18,778 nucleotides of DNA, taken from IMG/VR virus record IMGVR_UViG_3300047274_000273, positions 119,217 to 137,994 of that record, one strand, 5' to 3'. Numbering within the stretch: the first letter of the stretch is position 1; the number at the start of each line of letters is the position of its first letter. The position numbers and the translations under genes are program-made. Under the pieces are notes generated by a model, which saw nothing but the letters and a program-made list of their open reading frames with translations, did no database searches and was not told the origin of the DNA. Shown one piece after another: positions 5,982 to 17,980 of the stretch. The DNA comes from a virus. Its lineage: Duplodnaviria > Heunggongvirae > Uroviricota > Caudoviricetes.

Positions 5982-6572
5982 ATGATAAGTAATCATAACC
6001 AGGAACGCACCGTGAAAAAAATCGACGATTTTAACGCTGAAGATAGGGTCAACCTAAAATTACTCGAAAATTCTGTACACTTTCTACAGGGCGAAATAGA
6101 CGAAGAAACTGTTGGAAATTGTATTAAATGGATAACCTACGAGAATTTTGACTCTAGAGAAAAAGTTCTTACTCTATATATTAACTCTATGGGCGGAGAT
6201 CTTTATCAGGCATTCGCTTTGATAGATATCATGAACCAGAGCAACCATCCTATACGTGTGATAGGCATAGGTTCTGTGATGAGTGCGGCCTTCCTTATTT
6301 TTGCCGCAGGCACAAATGGCCAGAGGTATGCAGCTAAAAATACCAGTTTTATGATACATCAGTATTCAGACAATCTCAGTGGTAAACATCACGACCTAAA
6401 AGCGACCATGCGCGATGGTGAATTGTGTAATCAAAAAATGGTTGATATACTACGCACAGCAACAGGCTTAGCCCCGTCAAAAATCAAGAGCAAATTGCTG
6501 CCTGCCAGTGATGTGTACCTTTCTGCAGAAGAAGTAATTGAGTTAGGCATAGCAGATCATATATTTGGATAA
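5982..6572 (+). CDS. clpP: ATP-dependent Clp protease proteolytic subunit
   Basis: LYINSMGG, G.VMSAA (catalytic Ser), FMIHQ (His), SDVYLSAEE (Asp). Confidence 0.92.
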   Translation: MISNHNQERTVKKIDDFNAEDRVNLKLLENSVHFLQGEIDEETVGNCIKWITYENFDSREKVLTLYINSMGGDLYQAFALIDIMNQSNHPIRVIGIGSVMSAAFLIFAAGTNGQRYAAKNTSFMIHQYSDNLSGKHHDLKATMRDGELCNQKMVDILRTATGLAPSKIKSKLLPASDVYLSAEEVIELGIADHIFG

Positions 6573-6869: not shown

Positions 6870-7619
6870 ATGCAGATGACCGGTGAACAATTCGTAGAAG
6901 AACTATGGGAAGAGAACCAAGTTCTTTACAAAGCAAGCCAAATTCAAATCAAGGCTTTCTATGACAGTAACCCCAGCAAGGAAAAACTATACAATAACTT
7001 CGTGCGTAGAATGGTCAACGAGCGTATGAACATGGTTGAAATCGCCAAAGCCATCGCAGCAGCACCATTAGACAAGGATCCAAAAGAACTTGTTTCATTG
7101 GCTAAGCAGATGTTAGACGAAGCCAATCATTATCGTATGGTTTTTGATATCGTTCCTTACGTCAGTGGTTACGATGTTGATCTTGCTACAGCAGTTCCAA
7201 CAGAACTAGCAGATCTAAAGACCAAAGGCGCTCGCGTAGCAGAAAGATATAACTGCGAGAACGATCCAATCGCTCTAGCACTATATCAAGCTATCGTTGA
7301 AGGCCACGCTAGCTGCAACTGGCAAGTTATGGCAGATTCTTTAACTGACCCTGTTCTAAGCACAACATATGCTAAGATCGCAGCAGACGAGAGATTTCAT
7401 GCTAAGTTAGGTAAGACCAGCCTAGCAAAGATGCTAGACACAGAAGAAAAGCAGCAGTATGCTCGTGAACTAGCAAAGAAAATGAGAAAAGATCTTTATG
7501 ACATCAACTGTGGTGGTAACATCGCTATTGAAGAAAGTCGTAAAATGATCCAAGAGTACTACGGTGAAGATTGGATTGCTGGCAAGCATGAGACTGTAGA
7601 ACTAAAAGCAATTTATTAA
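6870..7619 (+). CDS. Ferritin-like diiron-carboxylate protein A
   Basis: AGGAG SD; E...DEANH...E...DERFH ligand pattern. Confidence 0.8.
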   Translation: MQMTGEQFVEELWEENQVLYKASQIQIKAFYDSNPSKEKLYNNFVRRMVNERMNMVEIAKAIAAAPLDKDPKELVSLAKQMLDEANHYRMVFDIVPYVSGYDVDLATAVPTELADLKTKGARVAERYNCENDPIALALYQAIVEGHASCNWQVMADSLTDPVLSTTYAKIAADERFHAKLGKTSLAKMLDTEEKQQYARELAKKMRKDLYDINCGGNIAIEESRKMIQEYYGEDWIAGKHETVELKAIY

Positions 7620-7638
7620 TCATAGAGGAACCATTATT

Positions 7639-8412
7639 ATGATCAAGTATGATACAGCAGAACTAGAAAAGATGGTATCCGATGGCTCTGAGTTTAGCGC
7701 AGATGTAAAAGAGTTTGTTGCTAAAATCGAAGCAGACAGCGAAGCTCTTTTCCAAGCTTCTGAAGCACAAGTAGAAGCATATTACAAGAGTGTTTCTGAC
7801 AAGAAGCAATTGGCCAAGCACTTCCAAGGTCGTATGGTTTGTGAAAGAATGAACCTTATCGAAATCTGCAACACCATCGCTAATGCTCCAGTTGACATGG
7901 ATCCAAAAGAGCTACAGCTTCTAAGCAAGCAGGCTCTAGACGAAGCCAATCACTTCCGTATGGTAAAAGGTGTAGTAGAGTACCTAGGTGGTGAGCCAGT
8001 TGACGTAGAGGCAGCTGTCGAGTTCGAACTAAACAAGAACAAAGACATCAAGGGTGCAAAACTATTAGAGAAGTACAACTGCCAGAATGATGAAATCGCC
8101 CTAGGCGTATATCAACTCCTAGCAGAAGGCCGCGCAGCACGTAACTGGGCTATGATGGCTAAGACTGTTGAAGATCAGTTCATCGCAGAAACATATGCAA
8201 AAATTGCTAAGGATGAAAAATTCCATAGCCAATTAGGTCGTCGTAGACTAATGCAGTTATGCGATACAATTGAAAAGCAACAACACGCTCTAAGTATTGC
8301 TGCTCAGATGCGTTTGGACCTTTTCGACATCAACTGCAAGAACACAGTTGAGTTAGAAAGCAGCCTTCAGTTGATGAAGGATGCCTACGGTTACGAGAAA
8401 ACTACTGCCTAA
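7639..8412 (+). CDS. Ferritin-like diiron-carboxylate protein B (paralog of A)
   Basis: RMVCERMNL, DEANHFRMV, AEG.A..NW and DEKFH align by eye to protein A. Confidence 0.8.
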   Translation: MIKYDTAELEKMVSDGSEFSADVKEFVAKIEADSEALFQASEAQVEAYYKSVSDKKQLAKHFQGRMVCERMNLIEICNTIANAPVDMDPKELQLLSKQALDEANHFRMVKGVVEYLGGEPVDVEAAVEFELNKNKDIKGAKLLEKYNCQNDEIALGVYQLLAEGRAARNWAMMAKTVEDQFIAETYAKIAKDEKFHSQLGRRRLMQLCDTIEKQQHALSIAAQMRLDLFDINCKNTVELESSLQLMKDAYGYEKTTA

Positions 8413-8424
8413 ATAGGATATCGC

Positions 8425-9018
8425 GTGAAAATAGCTATCAGCCAATCTGAATATCACCTCGGAAACAGCGAACTAGCTCATGATTGCTTAACACAGGATT
8501 GGTATAGTTTCGTGGGACACCACGAAATTATACCTGTTCCTAATATCAATAGCGATACTTTCCATAATTTCGATATGTTGATCCTCAGCGGAGGCAATGC
8601 CACTGCTGCGAGATCTCGTACCGAAGCAGGCTTATTTAATTACGCAGTAAAAAATAACATACCAGTGCTAGGTGTATGCCATGGCGCTTTCTTCATCGCA
8701 CAGTTGACCGGTGCCGAAGTCGTAGATATCGAAGGTCACAGAAACGTAGAACACATCGTCAAGCTCGACGGCAGAAACGTCATAGTCAATAGCTTCCACG
8801 GCAGTACCATAACTAAACTAGGCCAAGACTACGATGCCATCGCAGTTGACACTGAAGGTTACATAGAAGGTTTTAAGCACAAAGAAAAACCAATCTGGGG
8901 TCTAATCTGGCATCCAGAACGTCAAGAAGTTCCTATGTTGCCCGAAGACCTAGATAAGCTTCTACAGGTCAATGATAGAATATTCAATCAAAATTTTGAT
9001 TGGATGGACGCTCTATAA
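8425..9018 (+). CDS. Class I glutamine amidotransferase-like / peptidase C26 hydrolase
   Basis: LILSGG, PVLGVCHG (nucleophile Cys), VNSFH, WHPE (His-Glu); GTG start. Confidence 0.85.
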   Translation: MKIAISQSEYHLGNSELAHDCLTQDWYSFVGHHEIIPVPNINSDTFHNFDMLILSGGNATAARSRTEAGLFNYAVKNNIPVLGVCHGAFFIAQLTGAEVVDIEGHRNVEHIVKLDGRNVIVNSFHGSTITKLGQDYDAIAVDTEGYIEGFKHKEKPIWGLIWHPERQEVPMLPEDLDKLLQVNDRIFNQNFDWMDAL

Positions 9019-10533: not shown

Positions 10534-10622
10534 GGAGCTTGATCCCTACGGCGGACTGTAAATCCGTTGCCTTAATATGTAGGGTGGCTGGCAATTAGGT
10601 TCGATTCCTTCAGGCTCCACCA
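10534..10622 (+). tRNA. Atypical tRNA-Tyr(GTA) lacking a normal D-arm
   Basis: 7-bp acceptor, GCGGA-CTGTAAA-TCCGT arm, TTCGATT loop and ACCA end; only 10 nt in place of the D-arm; 3-bp T-stem. Confidence 0.65.
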
Positions 10623-10631
10623 AAATTTAGG

Positions 10632-10660
10632 TTGACATTTTTTGAGTTTGGTGCTATACT
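10632..10660 (+). promoter_or_regulatory. sigma70-type promoter with extended -10
   Basis: TTGACA-17-TATACT with TGn. Confidence 0.75.
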
Positions 10661-10693
10661 AATAACACTGAGAAACTTAGAAAAGGTTCCAAA

Positions 10694-10888
10694 ATGCAAG
10701 TTCATCGAGTATTTGTTGAAGTTGGTTATTATGCAGGCGGTGGCACCGATGGTGCTTTTATCTCCGAAACTATTAACCATTTCGAAACTACAGTTAATGC
10801 TAATTCTTCAGGTGACGCTGTTAGGATTGCACAGGCTCAATTCGGTGGTCAAGAACGTTGTCGCGTAACCTATCGCGGCACGATGTAA
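10694..10888 (+). CDS. Hypothetical protein
   Basis: 64-aa ORF downstream of the promoter; overlaps no tRNA. Confidence 0.7.
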   Translation: MQVHRVFVEVGYYAGGGTDGAFISETINHFETTVNANSSGDAVRIAQAQFGGQERCRVTYRGTM

Positions 10889-10893
10889 GATTT

Positions 10894-10968
10894 GGTCTCA
10901 AAGTGTTCATGGACGCACACGACACTGTCACTGTCGAAGAAGGGGATCGTTACCCCTTGGGACCGCCA
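10894..10968 (+). tRNA. tRNA-Asp(GTC)
   Basis: Cloverleaf; non-canonical T-loop ATCGTTA; CCA. Confidence 0.85.
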
Positions 10969-10977
10969 AAGTTTTAT

Positions 10978-11052
10978 TCCAGAGTAGCACAGCGGCAGTG
11001 CAGTTGACTGTTAATCAATTGGTCGGTGGTTCGATCCCACCCTCTGGAGCCA
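10978..11052 (+). tRNA. tRNA-Asn(GTT)
   Basis: Cloverleaf, CTGTTAA loop, CCA. Confidence 0.93.
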
Positions 11053-11057
11053 GTTTT

Positions 11058-11132
11058 GCACCGTTCGTCTATCGGTTAGGACACCCGCCTTTCACGCAGG
11101 TAAGAGGAGTTCGATTCTCCTACGGTGTACCA
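11058..11132 (+). tRNA. tRNA-Glu(TTC)
   Basis: Cloverleaf, CTTTCAC loop, C.A mismatch in the anticodon stem. Confidence 0.9.
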
Positions 11133-11140
11133 GTTTTATT

Positions 11141-11216
11141 GCGGGAGTAGCTCAGTTGGTAGAGCGCAACCTTGCCAAGGTTGAGGTCGCGAGTTCGAGA
11201 CTCGTCTCCCGCTCCA
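11141..11216 (+). tRNA. tRNA-Gly(GCC)
   Basis: Canonical cloverleaf. Confidence 0.97.
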
Positions 11217-11218
11217 TT

Positions 11219-11292
11219 ATCTCGGTGGTGTAATGGCAGCATAGCAGTCTCCAAAACTGTTTGTGGGGGTTCGAGTCCCTCCCGGGATGCCA
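11219..11292 (+). tRNA. tRNA-Trp(CCA)
   Basis: Cloverleaf, CTCCAAA loop. Confidence 0.92.
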
Positions 11293-11304
11293 ATAATTCA
11301 ATAT

Positions 11305-11382
11305 GCACAGGTGGCAGAGAGGCCCAATGCAAGAGTCTGCAAAACTCTAAAACCGTCGGTTCGAATCCGACCCTGTGCTCCA
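11305..11382 (+). tRNA. tRNA-Cys(GCA)
   Basis: Cloverleaf, CTGCAAA loop, U73. Confidence 0.93.
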
Positions 11383-11389
11383 AGTTTAT

Positions 11390-11489
11390 GCCTCTGTAGC
11401 TTAATTGGTAAAGACGCGAGCTTATACCTCGCCAAAGCACCGGCCAGATAAGCCGGCGTGTGCAGGTTCGAGTCCTGCCAGAGGCACCA
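11390..11489 (+). tRNA. tRNA-Ile(TAT) with an extra GAT-loop arm
   Basis: GCGAG-CTTATAC-CTCGC arm plus CCGGC-CAGATAA-GCCGG arm; 100 nt. Confidence 0.8.
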
Positions 11490-11494
11490 TATAT

Positions 11495-11573
11495 ACCCCT
11501 ATGGACAAATTGGTAAAGTCGTCTCTCTCAAAAGGAGAAGTTGTTCTCCGTTCGAATCGGAGTAGGGGTACCA
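11495..11573 (+). tRNA. tRNA-Leu(CAA), short variable region
   Basis: CTCAAAA loop; 7-nt variable region. Confidence 0.88.
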
Positions 11574-11579
11574 AGTTAA

Positions 11580-11671
11580 GGAAGCGTGGCAGAGTCTGGT
11601 TTATTGCACCGGTCTTGAAAACCGACGTCTTAGAAATAGGGCCGTGAGTTCGAATCTCACCGCTTCCACCA
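11580..11671 (+). tRNA. tRNA-Ser(TGA)
   Basis: CTTGAAA loop; long V-arm. Confidence 0.93.
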
Positions 11672-11686
11672 TATAAGGAGATAGTC

Positions 11687-11881
11687 ATGGAAGTCAGCGC
11701 AGTTACCTATTACGGTTGGAGAGACGGTTTCCAAACAGTAGAAAAACGCACTACCTACGATTATCCCAAGAGCAATGATGTTACCGTAGTCGAACATAGA
11801 TCCTATCAGATTACGCTGTATACTGATAAAGGAACTTTAGAAACACATAATCGTGGTAGCAACATTGACCAGATGGTATAA
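11687..11881 (+). CDS. Hypothetical protein
   Basis: AAGGAG SD; fills the gap between two tRNAs. Confidence 0.75.
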   Translation: MEVSAVTYYGWRDGFQTVEKRTTYDYPKSNDVTVVEHRSYQITLYTDKGTLETHNRGSNIDQMV

Positions 11882-11882
11882 T

Positions 11883-11958
11883 GCCTGTTTAGCTCAATCG
11901 GGAGAGCATCGTCTTGATAAGGCGGAGGTACCAGGATCGAAACCTGGAACAGGCACCA
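11883..11958 (+). tRNA. tRNA-Ile(GAT)
   Basis: TTGATAA loop; T-loop ATCGAAA. Confidence 0.9.
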
Positions 11959-12024
11959 TTATAAGGAGAAATCAAAATGGGGCATTGGCAGTTGTTATTT
12001 TGGTTATCATAGGTTTAATTTGGA

Positions 12025-12053
12025 TTGACAAACATCTAAAGTGAAGTTACAAT
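12025..12053 (+). promoter_or_regulatory. sigma70-type promoter
   Basis: TTGACA-17-TACAAT. Confidence 0.75.
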
Positions 12054-12079
12054 ACTAAAACTGAAAAAAGGAGAATGGC

Positions 12080-12100
12080 ATGAAACGTGGTAAACGTTAG
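12080..12100 (+). other. Mini-ORF MKRGKR followed by a hairpin
   Basis: AAGGAG SD 6 nt before ATG; hairpin at about 12100-12138. Confidence 0.45.
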
Positions 12101-12159
12101 TGTCGCCCTGGTACTCCGTATGGTCCAGGGTTGGCACAGTAAATCATCTAGTACGACGA

Positions 12160-12235
12160 CCCTGTGTAGCGTTAATGGTAGCGCACTTGACTCTTAATCA
12201 ATGAGGTGTGAGTTCAAATCTCACTGCAGGGACCA
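12160..12235 (+). tRNA. tRNA-Lys(CTT)
   Basis: CTCTTAA loop. Confidence 0.9.
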
Positions 12236-12238
12236 TAT

Positions 12239-12313
12239 GGGAGTATAGCTCAGCGGTAGAGCAGCGGACTTTTAATCCGTTGGTCCAGGGTTCAAATCCC
12301 TGTGCTCCTACCA
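12239..12313 (+). tRNA. tRNA-Lys(TTT)
   Basis: CTTTTAA loop. Confidence 0.95.
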
Positions 12314-12392
12314 TATAAAAACACACCGGTCTACCGCCACCGAGAGGTAGTTAAAGACAATGACAAGCAACAGCCAGTGTGTTTCTATATGG
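12311..12392 (+). repeat. Stem-closed RNA cassette, copy A
   Basis: CCATATAAAAACACAC ... GTGTGTTTCTATATGG inverted repeat. Confidence 0.75.
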
Positions 12393-12404
12393 TAAAGAAT
12401 TCAA

Positions 12405-13290
12405 GGGCAGCTTAATGTCCTGTAGGCGGTTCGCCGCTTACGAAGAATAACTCCTGTGAGGGAGCCAACAGATGTATGCCTACATAAGTCTGCCAGCGAT
12501 GGTTCATTTAAGCAAGCCTGCTCACTCCGGTGACGGAGCGTTCACTGATAAGACCGGTGGATGTAACAGCAAAGCTGATGTAGTGGAAAGAATGTTTGCT
12601 CAAGCGCCGCAAGGTAACGCAAGCAGATAGAGAGTAACAGGTGGTGCTGACCTCACTACAAAACCAATCAGTTAGTTGGTATGAGAAAGGGTAGTGTTCG
12701 GTTCCGAAGAGTCGCGTCTAAGGGGTCGAGCGCAGTTTGAGTGGTTAGTGGTAACGTAGCAATACGTTGACGCCGATCGCGAAGAACGACTGAGTAGCTC
12801 GCGAGGCAAAAGGTACGTGGTGTGTTGTATTCAGTAGAGCAAAACTTTATTGAGCAACAGAGGCAGCACATCGCAGTAGGTTCAGTTATAGCACAATTGG
12901 TAGTGCATCTCCCCTGTTAAGGAGACGGCTGAAGGTTCAACTCCTTCTAACGTTCAAAAAAGCAAAGACTGCCTCGGTCATATGTGAAAAGCATCTAATA
13001 CTTAGGGCGCAAGCCAACTAAGTCAGACGTAGCTCGCAAGGTGAAATCTGTTTATGCTGGAAGTTTCGTAAGGTGTTAGCGCACCTGAATAGCTCGCAAG
13101 GTTAACGGAATAGATAGCGTAGAATAGCATATGACGACAAGACTACTGCCTGTCTTTAAAAACGGCGATGCTGATAGTGGACATAGGTACCGCAAGGGCT
13201 TATGTGGATGTCTAGAGAAGCTGTGCTCGCAAGGTGCAGTATAATGCTAGAGGCACTATTAGCTAACGTGTAATCTCAGCGTTAGCACCA
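12405..13290 (+). ncRNA. GOLLD-like giant structured ncRNA (boundaries approximate)
   Basis: About 890 nt with no credible CDS inside a phage tRNA array; many GCAA/GNRA-capped hairpins (GCTCGCAAGGT three times); long-range GCAGTAG/CTACTGC pairing; 3' hairpin GCTAACG-TGTAATCTCAG-CGTTAGC resembling recalled GOLLD 3' ends. Confidence 0.75.
12885..12951 (+). other. tRNA-Asn-like element embedded in the GOLLD-like RNA
   Basis: D-arm GCAC-AATTGGTA-GTGC, TCTCC-CCTGTTAA-GGAGA arm, GAAGG-TTCAACT-CCTTC T-arm; 4-bp acceptor; no CCA. Confidence 0.75.
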
Positions 13291-13397
13291 TATAAAAACA
13301 CATTCAAGGCAAAGTACAAGCCTAGCAGAAGGTGCAGCCACGCCCGGCAACGAGCGTCGGTGGACGGTGCTACTCCGTCGAGTGTGTTTCTATATGG
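13288..13397 (+). repeat. Stem-closed RNA cassette, copy B
   Basis: CCATATAAAAACACATTC ... GAGTGTGTTTCTATATGG. Confidence 0.75.
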
Positions 13398-13470
13398 TAA
13401 TGTAGCATAATGGTAGTGCAACACCTTCATACGGTGCGCTGTGAAAGTTCGACTCTTTCCATTACCACCA
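13396..13470 (+). tRNA. tRNA(CAT), elongator Met or Ile2
   Basis: TTCATAC loop; G1-C72 paired; identity cannot be resolved by eye. Confidence 0.85.
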
Positions 13471-13475
13471 TATTT

Positions 13476-13550
13476 GGGGGCAGCAGAGGGCTGCGGTGGA
13501 TCCTTGCAAGATTCATGACTACAAGGGTTCGATACCCTGGGCCTCCACCA
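13476..13550 (+). tRNA. Atypical tRNA-Ala(TGC) with a miniature D-arm
   Basis: G3.U70, A73, CTTGCAA loop; D region GCAG-AGGG-CTGC. Confidence 0.65.
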
Positions 13551-13556
13551 ATTTTC

Positions 13557-13630
13557 GCCCTTTTAGTTTAATGGTAGAGCACCGGTTTTGTAATCCGGGA
13601 ATGGTGGTTCGATTCCATCAAGGGGCACCA
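13557..13630 (+). tRNA. tRNA-Thr(TGT)
   Basis: TTTGTAA loop; U.U at 31-39. Confidence 0.88.
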
Positions 13631-13633
13631 AGT

Positions 13634-13852
13634 TTTGTTGTAGTGTCAGCAAGAGAAAGTCACGCTATAAAGGTTTCTTCGAAGGACTGATATAGTAGAA
13701 GGTGGCGGGTTCGATGCCCGACGGATCGGAAGATCCGGGTACATGGTGGCGTACTATCTGGTCCGGTATCCCAAGTAACGTACCGAGTCCTGCCCGGGCT
13801 AGTTAATCCAGGTGAATGGTGCCAATAACGATGGTGGCACATCTACAACAAA
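13634..13852 (+). ncRNA. Unidentified structured ncRNA candidate
   Basis: 10-bp closing stem TTTGTTGTAG/CTACAACAAA and several internal hairpins. Confidence 0.6.
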
Positions 13853-13863
13853 TTTATTTCTGA

Positions 13864-13937
13864 TCGGGTGTAGTGTAATGGTAACACCACAGACTTTGAC
13901 TCTGTTATTCTAGGTTCGAGCCCTAGCACCCGTGCCA
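13864..13937 (+). tRNA. tRNA-Gln(TTG)
   Basis: CTTTGAC loop; U1.U72. Confidence 0.9.
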
Positions 13938-13938
13938 T

Positions 13939-14012
13939 GCTCCTATAGTTAAATGGAAGAACACATCCTTGGTAAGGATGCGATACAAGTTCGATTCTTG
14001 TTAGGAGCACCA
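13939..14012 (+). tRNA. tRNA-Thr(GGT)
   Basis: TTGGTAA loop. Confidence 0.92.
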
Positions 14013-14017
14013 TATAT

Positions 14018-14092
14018 CGGCCTGTAGCTCAGTGGAAGAGTTCTGGTCTTCGAAACCAGCTGTCGGGAGTTCGAATCTCTCCAGGCCGGCCA
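14018..14092 (+). tRNA. tRNA-Arg(TCG)
   Basis: CTTCGAA loop. Confidence 0.9.
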
Positions 14093-14109
14093 TATCCTAG
14101 GAGATTGTT

Positions 14110-14316
14110 ATGAAAGCAACAATGTTTAAAAATCGTTTTAATAATGAGCATTTTGTCTGTGACGATATCCGTGTGACCGAGAATATCGACGGTGTCGAGT
14201 ATCTTATCGTACATCGACCCAATGAACATCGTCCGCTTAAAATGCGTCGCGATGCATTAGAGAAGATCAATACCCCAGTAACTCAGCGGAATAAGAGTAC
14301 TACGCTACGAACGTAG
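14110..14316 (+). CDS. Hypothetical protein whose 3' end overlaps tRNA-Arg(ACG)
   Basis: AGGAG SD; the stop TAG lies in the anticodon stem. Confidence 0.7.
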   Translation: MKATMFKNRFNNEHFVCDDIRVTENIDGVEYLIVHRPNEHRPLKMRRDALEKINTPVTQRNKSTTLRT

Positions 14317-14349
14317 GAGTCGGAGGTTCGAGTCCTTCCTGGGGTGCCA
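14272..14349 (+). tRNA. tRNA-Arg(ACG)
   Basis: CTACG-CTACGAA-CGTAG arm. Confidence 0.92.
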
Positions 14350-14355
14350 AACAAT

Positions 14356-14429
14356 ATCGCGTTGGACTTCTGGGAGGTCACTAGGCTTTCAACCTAGATA
14401 GGCGGGTTCGATCCCCGTACGCGATACCA
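14356..14429 (+). tRNA. tRNA-Glu(TTC), second copy
   Basis: CTTTCAA loop; acceptor stem unrelated to the first copy. Confidence 0.85.
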
Positions 14430-14434
14430 ACAAT

Positions 14435-14508
14435 GGTGTTGTTAGTGTAATGGCTGCACGGCTGTCTGTGAAACAGTAAGGGAGGGTTCGATTCCCCACT
14501 TCACCCCA
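14435..14508 (+). tRNA. tRNA-His(GTG), irregular
   Basis: G-1:C73; CTGTGAA loop; two U.U pairs in the acceptor stem; short T-stem. Confidence 0.75.
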
Positions 14509-14513
14509 TGTAT

Positions 14514-14587
14514 AGTTCCTTAGTTCAATGGTAGAACGATACTTTGACATGGTATAGACACAAGTTCAATTCTTGTAGGAACTACCA
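14514..14587 (+). tRNA. tRNA-Val(GAC)
   Basis: TTGACAT loop. Confidence 0.88.
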
Positions 14588-14678
14588 TATGTAAACACAT
14601 TAGTGAAAGAACGGTCGTAGACCTTAGGGCTTAGCCTGCGGCATTGTCCTTCGACGGTGGCTAGTGTGTTTGCATATG
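14586..14678 (+). repeat. Stem-closed RNA cassette, copy C
   Basis: CATATGTAAACACATTAGT ... GCTAGTGTGTTTGCATATG, 19-bp stem. Confidence 0.7.
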
Positions 14679-14683
14679 TTAAT

Positions 14684-14759
14684 GCCGCTTTAGCTGATGT
14701 GGTCATAGCACCGGTTTGAAGCACCGAGGAACTAGGTTCGATCCCTAGAGGCGGCACCA
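14684..14759 (+). tRNA. tRNA-Phe(GAA)
   Basis: TTGAAGC loop (G37, C38). Confidence 0.85.
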
Positions 14760-14831
14760 GAGTACTCCTTATTGTGTACTGTGCGTTTCATGATAAGGGA
14801 AGGGAGAAGGCACAGTTCTCCCGAGAGATAT

Positions 14832-14908
14832 GCGGATGTGACGGAATTGGTATACGTATTAGACTTAAAATCTAAGTACTGAGGGTTCGAGTCCCTCCAT
14901 CCGTACCA
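14832..14908 (+). tRNA. tRNA-Leu(TAA), short variable region
   Basis: CTTAAAA loop; 5-nt variable region. Confidence 0.88.
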
Positions 14909-14909
14909 T

Positions 14910-14986
14910 GCCCAGATGGCGGAATTGGTATACGCACTATGTTGAGGTCGTAGGCGCTGCGGGTTCGAGTCCCGCTCTGGGTACCA
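14910..14986 (+). tRNA. tRNA-Leu(GAG), short variable region
   Basis: TTGAGGT loop; 5-nt variable region. Confidence 0.88.
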
Positions 14987-14993
14987 AAAAATT

Positions 14994-15065
14994 GCCTCTG
15001 CTGATGGAGCAGTGCCAGGTCTTCTAAACCAGGTTATGGGAGTTCGAATCTCTCCAGAGGCGCCA
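14994..15065 (+). tRNA. Atypical tRNA-Arg(TCT) with a reduced D-arm
   Basis: Perfect 7-bp acceptor; CTTCTAA loop; D region CTG-ATGGAG-CAG; A.A in the anticodon stem. Confidence 0.65.
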
Positions 15066-15073
15066 TATAAAGG

Positions 15074-15102
15074 TTGACAGTAACAAACAAAGGCTATATA
15101 AT
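15074..15102 (+). promoter_or_regulatory. sigma70-type promoter (perfect consensus)
   Basis: TTGACA-17-TATAAT. Confidence 0.88.
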
Positions 15103-15138
15103 ATACACTTGTTCGTTAAAAATTCAAAGTAGTTAATT

Positions 15139-15219
15139 GCCCCGGTGGTGGAATTGGTAGACACGCTGGTCTTAGAAGCCAGTCTTCGGGTACGAGTTCG
15201 AGTCTCGTCTGGGGCACCA
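15139..15219 (+). tRNA. tRNA-Leu(TAG)
   Basis: CTTAGAA loop; 9-nt variable region. Confidence 0.92.
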
Positions 15220-15225
15220 TTAAAA

Positions 15226-15374
15226 AATAACATTGACAGGTATCGTCTATGGACGCATAGACTTACGAAGAATAGGGCCATCTTACTCTTCTGAAAAAAC
15301 TGCGGGCAATGGCTTATGAGGAGAATCGAACTCCACTCAGAAATTCGCTCCATCCCATAGGGTGCAATGTTATT
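15226..15374 (+). ncRNA. Unidentified structured ncRNA candidate
   Basis: AATAACATTG/CAATGTTATT closing stem; GTCTATG-GACG-CATAGAC hairpin. Confidence 0.5.
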
Positions 15375-15392
15375 CTTTAATGGTAAGTTTTT

Positions 15393-15471
15393 CCGGGTGT
15401 AGCTTAGTCTGGCTTAAAGCGCCTGCTTTGGGAGCAGGAGATCGTGAGTTCGAATCCCACTTCCCGGACCA
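15393..15471 (+). tRNA. tRNA-Pro(TGG)
   Basis: CCTGC-TTTGGGA-GCAGG arm. Confidence 0.92.
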
Positions 15472-15476
15472 ATTTT

Positions 15477-15552
15477 GCATCCTTAACTCAGTTGGTAGAG
15501 TTCCGCCTTTACACGGCGGCTGTCGGGAGTTCGAGTCTCTCAGGATGCACCA
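15477..15552 (+). tRNA. tRNA-Val(TAC)
   Basis: TTTACAC loop. Confidence 0.95.
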
Positions 15553-15560
15553 TATAGTAC

Positions 15561-15654
15561 GGTGAGTTGGATGAGCTGGTTTAAATCACTTTCCTGCTAA
15601 GAAAGAGTTCGATGTAAAGTCGGGCCGTGGGTTCGAATCCCACACTCACCACCA
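15561..15654 (+). tRNA. tRNA-Ser(GCT)
   Basis: CTGCTAA loop; long V-arm. Confidence 0.92.
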
Positions 15655-15674
15655 ATTTTAAAAAGGAAAAATAA

Positions 15675-15854
15675 ATGCTTAAACCCGGTCCAAACTATAG
15701 AATGAGTAAACAAGGTAAAAGATTTGCTGCTCTCATCATTGATTCTCATCAGCGAGGTGAATTTCTTCGCTCGACTGTTCAGGCAGAATTAGCAGCGGCT
15801 ATTCAACCCAAGCGTGAAAAACCACGCCGTGATGTTCCACAAGGTAATCAGTAA
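15675..15854 (+). CDS. Small basic hypothetical protein (59 aa; not in the ORF track)
   Basis: AAGGA SD; MLKPGPNYRMSKQGKRFAALIIDSHQRGEFLRSTVQAELAAAIQPKREKPRRDVPQGNQ. Confidence 0.7.
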   Translation: MLKPGPNYRMSKQGKRFAALIIDSHQRGEFLRSTVQAELAAAIQPKREKPRRDVPQGNQ

Positions 15855-15856
15855 TC

Positions 15857-16114
15857 ATGGTTGCACGTAATGATATCACGGGCGATGCAATTCAAACCAA
15901 AAGTGCATCGGAAGCATATCGAGATAATTACGATTTAATTTTTAGGAAAAATAATATGCAGGTAAGAGTAGCAGAAGAAGGTAAAAAGATTGGAACTTGT
16001 GGTTGTGGTCGTTCGCCCACCGGCGATTGTATCGGTTGGCACGGTCTCAGCGAAACTGTCTATCAAGAAAAACTTCAGAAGTATCTTGAAGAACAGAAGG
16101 TCGCTGATAAGTAA
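15857..16114 (+). CDS. Small protein with a CDGSH-like Fe-S motif
   Basis: CGCGRSPTGDCIGWH; a second SD and ATG at about 15957. Confidence 0.7.
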   Translation: MVARNDITGDAIQTKSASEAYRDNYDLIFRKNNMQVRVAEEGKKIGTCGCGRSPTGDCIGWHGLSETVYQEKLQKYLEEQKVADK

Positions 16115-16120
16115 AAAGTT

Positions 16121-16196
16121 GGGGGTATAGCTCAGCTGGGAGAGCAGTAGCTTTGCAAGCTAAAGGTCGTCGGTTCGATCCCGTCTACCTCCACCA
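16121..16196 (+). tRNA. tRNA-Ala(TGC)
   Basis: Canonical; G3.U70. Confidence 0.95.
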
Positions 16197-16201
16197 AATT
16201 T

Positions 16202-16275
16202 GCTCTGTTAGTTAAATGGTATAACAGTTGCCTTGTAAGCATCAGTCGTTGGTTCGATTCCATCACGGAGCACCA
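16202..16275 (+). tRNA. tRNA-Thr(TGT), second copy
   Basis: CTTGTAA loop; U.U mismatches in the anticodon and T stems. Confidence 0.88.
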
Positions 16276-16291
16276 GTATTACCAAAATGTC

Positions 16292-16319
16292 TTGACAAAG
16301 ACGTTAATGAGTGTATAAT
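16292..16319 (+). promoter_or_regulatory. sigma70-type promoter
   Basis: TTGACA-16-TATAAT. Confidence 0.7.
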
Positions 16320-16609
16320 ATTTTTGTTACGGTAGAAATACTGTAACCGGTGAAGCAGAAGGTAGATGAGGATAGACGTTGTATGGCTTCATGCCGTACA
16401 GACTAATTCTGGCAAAGACGCTTGAAACGTCTCCGTGCTTGGGTGATCCGATTTTATAGACTGTCATTTGCTGATCGGAAATATTCAGGCCACTGTCGCC
16501 TGTGTATTGCACGTTGTCTAGACCGACGACTTCGAACAATAGGTCTTGTCAATTGTCCGGTCTATTACTTGACCTTTTGCCGACCCGTCAACAACATCAA
16601 GGAAGCTAC

Positions 16610-16855
16610 ATGGCTAGGATTTCAGCGGAAGAAGCGGCAGCAGCGATAGGTAACAGATTTGACTTGGTGTTAGTAGCCAGTCAACGAGCGAGAGAGATTA
16701 AGAATGGGTCTAGGCCTAGGATAGCTGATCAGAACTCTACACCCTGTGTAGCAGCTCTTAAAGAAATCGAAGAAGGCAAGTATACCTACAACGACTATTT
16801 GGTCACAGTACAACGAAAGAAAAAAGGACACAGAGATGAATATTTCCCTACGTAA
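16610..16855 (+). CDS. rpoZ: RNA polymerase omega subunit
   Basis: AAGGAAG SD before ATG 16610; MARIS...GNRFDLVLVASQRAREI..G..P...ALKEIEEG matches the omega signature. Confidence 0.9.
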   Translation: MARISAEEAAAAIGNRFDLVLVASQRAREIKNGSRPRIADQNSTPCVAALKEIEEGKYTYNDYLVTVQRKKKGHRDEYFPT

Positions 16856-17408
16856 AGCAAACGCAATCCAAAACAACATCAATGACGCTATCCGTAGTGT
16901 CAAGATCGAATCTAGCATCGAACTCAACGAGTTTCAGGATGTGGCTGTAGAGCTGCAAAAGGCCAACGATCTGGTCATCGCCAACGATGCCCGTAGGCAG
17001 AAACTGTTGTTGGCTCTGTACAACATCAGAGGCCTAGTCGGCACAGCCAATGCCAGCTGCGGTATCGATCTTAGCTTGGCCAAGGCTGCGTTTATCGACA
17101 AGCGTATCGCTCAGCTCGAAGAATTGGCATCGTTAAAGGCAGTCACATCATTAGATGTGATCAAAGGTAAACTTGAGAAAATCAAAAGCCTTAAAGACGA
17201 AGCTCGTAGCCGTATCTATGGCTACGGTGACACCGTGAGCACCACAGTGGTCAGCCAAAGTCAGATCGATCAGGCCAAGGCAGAGATTCTAAATCTCAAG
17301 AAGCAGAAGCAAAAGCTCAACGACGAAGTGCTTGAGCTTAACATCAAAACTGAGATTCCTCTCAGCGATGAAACAGTAGCTCTTCTACAAGCAGAAGGCC
17401 TACTGTAA
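16836..17408 (+). CDS. Hypothetical coiled-coil protein
   Basis: 190-aa helical ORF overlapping the end of rpoZ. Confidence 0.8.
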   Translation: MNISLRKANAIQNNINDAIRSVKIESSIELNEFQDVAVELQKANDLVIANDARRQKLLLALYNIRGLVGTANASCGIDLSLAKAAFIDKRIAQLEELASLKAVTSLDVIKGKLEKIKSLKDEARSRIYGYGDTVSTTVVSQSQIDQAKAEILNLKKQKQKLNDEVLELNIKTEIPLSDETVALLQAEGLL

Positions 17409-17410
17409 CA

Positions 17411-17614
17411 GACCCCGGGGTCCCTTCCTCGTTATTAAAGGGGGTAATTGGCTTCACCAGAATGCCAGGGTACAAACGGTAACGACCCCAAGGCCCTCTT
17501 TAGGGGCGACTTGAGACACCGTGGCGGCAGAAGTAGAACTGACGACAAAGATGCAAATACTAACGGACAGGGTAACAACTCAGTCTAGGGCGGAACAGGG
17601 AACCGTAGCTAGAC
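17411..17614 (+). ncRNA. Unidentified structured ncRNA candidate
   Basis: About 200 nt, non-coding; GGGGTC/GACCCC and GTCTAG/CTAGAC stems. Confidence 0.45.
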
Positions 17615-17727
17615 ACTTTTAATGAGTAGATTGACGAGATTTCGACACTCCGGCAAGAGTAACATTATCAAGTCGATTTGCCGATCGAGGGGGCCTATAA
17701 TTTCCCTTCAGTCTACTCCTTAAAAGT
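17615..17727 (+). ncRNA. Stem-closed, pseudoknot-capable RNA candidate
   Basis: 19-bp closing stem with one mismatch; ACTC-CGGCAA-GAGT loop complementary to TTGCCG. Confidence 0.5.
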
Positions 17728-17736
17728 AAAGTCTAT

Positions 17737-17810
17737 CGCGGGATAGAGAAACGGTAACTCAAGAGTCTCATAAGCTCTAGATCCTGGTTCGATTCCAGGT
17801 CCCGCAACCA
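17737..17810 (+). tRNA. tRNA-fMet-like (CAT)
   Basis: C1.A72 mismatch and A11-U24; CTCATAA loop; lacks the three G-C anticodon-stem pairs. Confidence 0.85.
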
Positions 17811-17814
17811 TTCT

Positions 17815-17889
17815 CTCGCTATAGTTCAATGGACAGAACGGTTCTCTCCTAAAGAACAAATCCAGGTTCGACTCCTGGTGGCGAGGCCA
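17815..17889 (+). tRNA. tRNA-Arg(CCT)
   Basis: CTCCTAA loop. Confidence 0.92.
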
Positions 17890-17906
17890 GAAGTAAATAG
17901 TTTTAT

Positions 17907-17980
17907 GCGGGGTTCGTATAGTGGTAATACCTCAGCCTTCCAAGCTGATGCGGAGAGTTCGATTCTCTTACCCCGCTCCA
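17907..17980 (+). tRNA. tRNA-Gly(TCC)
   Basis: CTTCCAA loop; U73. Confidence 0.95.

Follow-up and report, generated by a model that had tools for sequence, protein, structure and literature searches.

A tRNA gene displaying two isoleucine anticodons

The tRNA gene at 11390-11489 of the phage DNA studied here carries two hairpins, one displaying UAU and the other GAU, both of them isoleucine anticodons. This raises the question of which arm is read by the ribosome, and of what the other arm is for. The window (the whole stretch of DNA analysed, 18,778 nucleotides) is the final 18.8 kb of a 138-kb IMG/VR phage record (completeness 39%, CheckV), in which no phage-encoded IleRS or TilS-like gene was found. 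A dense + strand array spanning 10534-17980 contains 36 tRNA genes, 34 of them identified by ARAGORN and 2 more by Rfam. The two-arm gene sits 7 nt after tRNA-Cys and 5 nt before tRNA-Leu(CAA), and the ordinary tRNA-Ile(GAU) of the phage is located at 11883-11958.

The gene is 100 nt long with its encoded CCA, and its sequence agrees base for base with a preliminary description made from the letters alone, which had reported a D arm, a first arm, a 7-nt linker, a second arm, a 5-nt spacer and a T arm, in that order. All of these elements were located as described, on the + strand. The 5' strand of the acceptor stem (11390-11396) pairs with 11479-11485, and the 5' strand of the D stem is GCTT (11399-11402), as identified from the sequence, the Rfam alignment and pair counts. 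A first candidate for the D-stem 3' strand, AAGA (11411-11414), is followed by arm 1, GCGAG-CTTATAC-CTCGC (11416-11432), with a 5-bp stem and the 7-nt loop CUUAUAC, in which the UAU anticodon (11423-11425) is flanked by U33 and A37. The linker CAAAGCA (11433-11439) contains a second candidate D-stem 3' strand, AAGC (11435-11438). Arm 2, CCGGC-CAGATAA-GCCGG (11440-11456), has again a 5-bp stem and a 7-nt loop, CAGAUAA, with GAU at 11447-11449 and A at the position of U33. Five nucleotides, CGUGU (11457-11461), the length of a class-I variable loop, lead to the T arm, GCAGG-UUCGAGU-CCUGC (11462-11478), recognized in the sequence, by Rfam and in the alignment. The gene closes with the acceptor 3' strand, A73 (11486) and CCA (11487-11489), together 11479-11489.

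The Rfam tRNA model (RF00005) gives the gene 57.6 bits, its cut-off being 29, and the hallmarks of that model are present: the acceptor stem of the cloverleaf has 7 bp and the T stem 5 bp, the T loop follows GTTCRANTC, and the D loop contains GG. Also present are those of a two-arm tRNA-Ile(UAU), namely a NUUAUAN loop in arm 1, a following hairpin whose 7-nt loop has GAU at positions 3-5, and A73. ARAGORN, run on the window, did not call the gene. The analysis below shows that it is a real tRNA and a member of a large family.

Several other features of the record were recorded. A GOLLD RNA (Rfam 216 bits) lies inside the tRNA array at 12817-13282, and embedded in it is a tRNA-like unit (12885-12951) with an acceptor stem of only 4 bp and an anticodon loop of apparently 8 nt (CCUGUUAA). 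A gene resembling tRNA-Tyr(GUA), whose variable region is very long, lies at about 10534-10625; it was called neither by ARAGORN nor by Rfam at its gathering threshold. Genes for a ClpP-like protease, two ferritin-like (PaaA/PaaC-like) proteins and a class-I glutamine amidotransferase are found just upstream of the array (5982-6572 and 6870-9018), and a CHASE2-cyclase protein and a CsgG-like protein are encoded elsewhere in the record (G000, 113875-116004 and 108154-109365).

Conservation of both triplets among relatives

BLAST retrieved the same two loops on different stems in Acinetobacter phage qsb1, where the gene is annotated as tRNA-Ile, and in E. coli phage ESCO41, where it is unannotated; T5-like Vibrio phages and Vibrio phage henriette emerged from a later search. 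IMG/VR was then scanned with three patterns. The first, with both loops fixed, gave 107 loci. The second fixed the CTTATAC loop and the T loop and left arm 2 free, yielding 90 distinct cloverleaf-like tRNAs, and the third fixed arm 2 and left arm 1 free. In total, 235 distinct two-arm relatives were collected from phages and bacteria. ARAGORN missed 60 of these 235 and called three relatives as gat.

The second scan is neutral for arm 2, and its tRNAs were tested for a hairpin with a stem of at least 3 bp and a 7-nt loop centred on GAT. Such a hairpin was present in 73 of the 90; 14 had a short variable loop, and 3 were long-armed without a clean hairpin, one of which still contains CAGATTA. 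Of the 76 phage tRNAs that combine a CTTATAC loop with a long arm, 73 thus have the GAT hairpin, and about 15% of UAU-loop phage tRNAs carry no extra arm. Shuffled variable regions passed the same test at 1.1%, as did 2 of 565 Leu, Ser and Tyr tRNAs from the same phage contigs, and the frequency of the GAT-centred hairpin is far above chance. Long-armed phage tRNAs outside the family are rare and have plain tetraloop arms. The corresponding scan of bacterial genomes yielded 52 cloverleaf-like tRNAs with a UAU loop and a long arm, 44 of them bearing the GAU arm.

With arm 1 left free, the loop of every family member was NUUAUAN, with U33-UAU-A37 invariant; the few matches that differed lay outside the family. 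A73 is present in 234/235 relatives. The loops of arm 2 include CAGAUUA, UAGAUGA and CUGAUAA, and since their flanks differ among relatives, only G, A and U are fixed. Position 33 of this loop is mostly A, and position 37 is A, U or G, unlike a true tRNA-Ile anticodon loop. The geometry varies too, with stems of 3-5 bp and 5' linkers of 1-10 nt. The 3' linker measures 5-6 nt in 215/235 relatives when stems are parsed as contiguous; in type A, a bulged G, if allowed, lengthens the arm-2 stem and cuts this linker to 3 nt.

The preliminary description had called for a search for a conserved GAT-loop arm in phage tRNA-Ile(TAT) genes, which the 73 of 76 long-armed tRNAs now provide, and had named a non-conserved loop in homologs as the outcome that would speak against it. 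That outcome was looked for and not found: GAU is invariant while the stems covary. Both UAU and GAU are shown to be under selection. Six bacterial relatives have GAC instead of GAU in arm 2, again on covarying stems. These tRNAs (L223, L263, L264 from Azospirillum oleiclasticum, L274 and L275 from Dongiaceae MAGs, and L307) have the UAU anticodon loop, bodies close to those of the GAU-arm family and an arm-2 loop of the form YGGACNN, GAC being a valine anticodon.

Other unusual forms came from the same searches. An 88-nt relative on a viral contig (L421) has CUCUGAC in arm 1, with the glutamine anticodon CUG, and still contains CAGAUAA in arm 2. In Vibrio phage Pontus, the ordinary tRNA-Ile(GAU) adjoining the two-arm gene (L429, 204-279) has C33 in its loop, CCGAUAA. 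Three viral loci (L124, L185, L204) and one Saccharibacteria MAG (L234) hold tRNA-like genes in which the CUUAUAC loop, CCA and a normal T arm are present and an ordinary D arm is not; a D-loop-like GGTAGTTGGT segment is placed in their variable region instead.

Two candidate D stems in the subtype of the window

Pairing was assessed in a MAFFT alignment of 58 members of the subtype to which the window's gene belongs. All seven acceptor pairs covary and are 100% paired. Changes on both sides were seen for 10/10 pairs of the two arms (5/5 in each), with 96.9% of cells paired in arm 1 and 99% in arm 2. The D stem behaves differently according to the 3' strand assigned to it. With AAGA (fold A, which has UAU in the anticodon position), G10 faces A25, 71.6% of cells are paired and the 10-25 pair is unpaired in 50 of the 58 members. 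The linker AAGC, which the preliminary description had missed, is a perfect partner of GCTT (fold B, with GAU in the anticodon position), and here 91.4% of cells are paired. Pair 10-25' is G-C in 57 members and a compensated U-A in the remaining one, and UA, CG, GC and UG all occur at pair 13-22'.

Because AAGC pairs perfectly with GCTT, the Rfam alignment treats the GAU-bearing arm 2 as the anticodon arm, and 25 nt, arm 1 among them, end up in the D loop. The nearest-neighbour energy of each of the two cloverleafs is -34.5 kcal/mol. Given two D-stem partners and equal energies, the tRNAs of this subtype can position either arm beneath the D stem; by pair counts the linker is the favoured partner, which would put the GAU arm in the anticodon position. 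We infer from these features that folds A and B may interconvert, the RNA switching between UAU and GAU as the triplet in the anticodon position. An alternative-fold switch had been among the first suggestions for this gene. For the window's subtype it gains ground from the mutually exclusive D stems, their equal energy and the pair counts, but it does not carry over to most other relatives, whose linkers of 1-5 nt contain no second D strand and make fold B impossible. A conserved loop-loop contact was considered separately and rejected: the 6-bp pairing of the two loops in the minimum-free-energy, non-cloverleaf structure is not kept in relatives, which retain UUAU/AUAA at most.

AUA decoding in the phage and in Actinomyces

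In the phage record, 25% of the isoleucine codons are AUA. The meaning of this codon was examined in the phage ribonucleotide reductase by comparison with 61 distant homologs, close ones (about 90% identical) being uninformative. At the nine AUA columns, the homologs have I (38%), L (19%) and V (11%), a profile that resembles that of AUU/AUC columns and differs from those of Leu or Ser columns. AUA therefore means isoleucine in this phage, and UAU of arm 1 would be its reader. A codon AUA read by a UAU anticodon would have no need of lysidine, the product of TilS.

The genus Actinomyces offers a cellular counterpart. Among 58 Actinomyces species genomes, 56 have the two-arm tRNA, with the arm-2 loop always CUGAUAA and the arm-2 stems covarying. 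TilS was found above the family cut-off in none of the 58, the best match reaching 26 bits. To our knowledge, TilS is otherwise nearly universal in bacteria. In a sample of 81 genomes from the family, the four carriers of the two-arm tRNA are without TilS and 73 of the other 77 have TilS above the cut-off; no genome of the sample other than these four lacked a real TilS match. These distributions show a two-arm design that stands in for TilS as the AUA reader of Actinomyces, an association that counts as a single evolutionary event. The carriers and their TilS-bearing relatives have the same long type of IleRS, whose C-terminal part diverges no more between the two groups than it does between the two TilS-bearing relatives. 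A second TilS-less clade was sought in the Saccharimonadia, which mostly have a short-armed tRNA(UAU), with the two-arm form in only one MAG.

At three of four Actinomyces loci examined (L441, L442, L447), the two-arm tRNA adjoins tRNA-Leu(UAA), another reader of an A-ending codon, of a kind that is rare in these genomes of 70% G+C. The DNA flanking the two-arm loci is poorly conserved between Actinomyces species.

Long-armed amber suppressors with a CUG arm

Amber-suppressor tRNAs on phage contigs are mostly short-armed, and 17 are long-armed (including L513, L527, L536, L544, L580, L543, L506, L523 and L115, all on viral contigs). These 17 CUA tRNAs mostly have glutamine-like acceptor features, with a weak 1-72 pair in 13, G2-C71 in 15, G73 in 12 and G10 in 16. 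CUGA occurs in the apical loop of the extra arm in 16 of them, compared with a background of 5.5% in class II arms, and in 8 the loop has strictly 7 nt, with the glutamine anticodon CUG at its centre. Their layout matches that of the UAU/GAU tRNAs. A suppressor-tRNA pattern scan with a looser loop returned mostly noise. By analogy, the CUG arm supports the principle of a second anticodon put on display, as would be the case for GAU.

The GAU arm as a candidate identity signal for IleRS

We propose that arm 2 has been selected for its likeness to an isoleucine anticodon arm and displays GAU, which the host IleRS, a poor acceptor of the UAU anticodon, would read as an identity signal. The ribosome would thus read one arm and the synthetase the other. 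In E. coli IleRS, kcat/Km is 360-fold lower for UAU than for LAU, and a single residue change in the enzyme partly cures its poor acceptance of UAU (PMC3575796). Both bacterial types, IleRS1 and IleRS2, depend on the anticodon (PMC13752280). A phage is unable to alter the IleRS of its host, so a signal borne by the tRNA would be a sensible solution. The preliminary description had already suggested that GAU might serve recognition by IleRS and UAU the decoding of AUA without TilS; this is supported in part, through the comparative fit of invariant triplets, a TilS-less genus and the CUG suppressors. Indirectly, A73, the isoleucine-type behaviour of AUA in the phage and the replacement of TilS in Actinomyces point to isoleucine as the amino acid that the tRNA would carry.

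Other observations weigh against charging through the GAU arm. The modified base t6A37 is a known determinant for E. coli IleRS, and the variability of arm-2 position 37 means that many members could not have it. A class I synthetase is also not expected to reach the variable arm. Since most members are without fold B, a single docking mode is not an obvious fit for all of them. The A33 of arm 2, its varying geometry, the armless UAU tRNAs, the relatives with GAC and the short-armed tRNA(UAU) of the Saccharimonadia point in the same direction. In view of the TilS result and the glutamine parallel, we nevertheless regard reading of the GAU arm by IleRS as an even call. The broader proposition, that anticodon-displaying arms generally separate the reading by the ribosome from that by the synthetase, is put forward tentatively and seems to us somewhat more doubtful than probable. 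It would cover GAU for IleRS, CUG for GlnRS, a GAC arm as valine donor for AUA in a few Alphaproteobacteria, and the cloverleaf switch in the window's subtype.

The strongest alternative, although rather unlikely in our estimation, is that the gene is a real AUA-reading tRNA-Ile whose GAU arm serves a role other than IleRS recognition, such as folding or stability of a five-arm structure, recruitment of a modification enzyme, or fidelity against AUG. The variation of arm 2 in position and stem length would suit such a role, as would loop positions 33 and 37 that differ from those of a true isoleucine anticodon loop and the existence of the GAC subfamily. The tRNA(UAU) of Mycoplasma mobile misreads AUG on E. 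coli ribosomes (PMC3575796), which suggests that phage UAU tRNAs face a fidelity problem as well. However, no alternative partner accounts for an invariant triplet that is the other isoleucine anticodon and lies at positions 3-5 of a 7-nt loop. The CUG in the same place of the glutamine-like suppressors would also be left unexplained, and other long-armed phage tRNAs manage with plain tetraloop arms.

It is quite improbable that arm 2 itself decodes, the gene being a tRNA-Ile(GAU) whose D loop contains an inserted hairpin. The Rfam alignment depicts this arrangement, the D stem does pair better with the linker, and the gat calls by ARAGORN agree with it. Yet arm 2 mostly has A33 where the U-turn needs U, and its position 37 is variable, whereas arm 1 always has U33 and A37; the short linkers of most relatives supply no second D strand; the phage already has an ordinary tRNA-Ile(GAU); and TilS-less Actinomyces needs a reader of AUA.

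We consider it highly improbable that the long arm makes the tRNA a substrate of LeuRS or SerRS, with AUA read as another amino acid. A long extra arm with A73 is compatible with leucine identity, and there are parallels in the leucine-charged nev-tRNA-Ile(UAU) of nematodes and in allo-tRNAs with a proposed serine identity. The AUA columns of the phage reductase are, however, of isoleucine type, the invariant GAU is not explained by recognition by LeuRS or SerRS, and the discriminator base is A, whereas serine requires G. Also against serine, six allo-tRNA(UAU) variants gave no Ser suppression (PMC5389517).

Just as improbable is protection, as a decoy or shield, from host nucleases that cleave the anticodon loops of tRNA-Ile, a role that had been suggested in the preliminary description and found no support here. 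Unusual anticodon-loop bases are frequent in phage tRNAs, the C33 in tRNA-Ile(GAU) of phage Pontus being an example, but the arm occurs strictly with UAU tRNAs and has been retained on Actinomyces chromosomes too. Moreover, we know of no anticodon nuclease specific for tRNA-Ile(GAU). Least probable of all is an inert remnant of a tandem duplication of the anticodon arm: the window's subtype does contain two 24-nt units (AAAG, two bases and an arm) that resemble a diverged duplication, but GAU has stayed fixed in 56 Actinomyces species and in phages that infect many different hosts, even as all five stem pairs changed on both sides.

If the GAU arm is indeed read by IleRS, an identity signal would have moved from the decoding anticodon to a separate arm. 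This would explain how phages of many hosts could have AUA readers independent of a host TilS or a specialised IleRS, and how the genus Actinomyces could have lost TilS. It would also show how codons might be reassigned without retuning a synthetase, and offer a ready design for engineered tRNAs in sense-codon reassignment or stop-codon suppression. Two-arm genes are handled badly by gene finders, ARAGORN missing 60 of 235 and the Rfam model taking the other arm as the anticodon. Cultured two-arm systems exist in E. coli phage ESCO41, Acinetobacter phage qsb1, T5-like Vibrio phages and Actinomyces oris.

Comparison with known systems

Full-text literature searches found no published description of a GAU-bearing extra arm, and several known tRNAs resemble the two-arm gene in part. 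Like the class II tRNAs for Leu, Ser and Tyr, it has an additional helix separating the anticodon and T arms, and in fold A this is a long variable arm of 5 bp. Its 7-nt anticodon-like loop is atypical of that class, as the two GAU-centred 7-nt loops in 565 class II arms of the same contigs illustrate; its arm is flanked by 7 and 5 unpaired bases, and its anticodon is UAU, not one for Leu, Ser or Tyr. In nematodes, nev-tRNA-Ile(UAU) also has a UAU anticodon together with a long variable arm (Hamashima et al. 2012, PMC3333845). It differs in being eukaryotic, derived from tRNA-Leu and charged only with leucine, and no anticodon-like arm loop is reported for it (PMC3333845).

The allo-tRNA(UAU) of soil bacteria is closer, having UAU, a long extra arm and 'possible five-stem-junction structures' (Mukai et al. 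2017, PMC5389517). The Acidobacteriota copies that we examined carry a GCGC-CAGAUUA-GCGC arm; the main text of Mukai et al. 2017 (PMC5389517) does not mention GAU. In allo-tRNAs the acceptor and T stems measure 8/4 or 9/3, the D stem is long and capped by a tetraloop, and the discriminator is mostly G73 or U73 (PMC5389517), whereas the phage gene has a 7/5 arrangement, a D stem of 3-4 bp, an 8-nt D loop and A73.

Reading of AUA by UAU has precedents in tRNAs with a single anticodon arm. In a Bacillus subtilis suppressor that bypasses tilS, a UAU tRNA-Ile is able to replace TilS together with tRNA-Ile2; unlike the phage gene, it is a laboratory point mutant (G34U) of tRNA-Ile1 with one anticodon arm (PMC3919564). 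The phage gene shares UAU with U33 and A37 with the class-I tRNA-Ile(UAU) of TilS-lacking bacteria, but not their short variable loop of 4-5 nt, having 29 nt between arm 1 and the T stem. In those bacteria the tRNA is partnered by an IleRS adapted to UAU, with Arg or Lys where E. coli has W905. Among these tRNAs, the tRNA-Ile2(UAU) of Mycoplasma mobile resembles the two-arm tRNA in that UAU reads AUA without lysidine and standard IleRS accepts UAU poorly (PMC3575796). Its variable loop is of the ordinary short kind, and the problem is solved by the enzyme, through Arg865 of IleRS (PMC3575796), whereas here the solution would lie in the tRNA, as a second arm displaying GAU.
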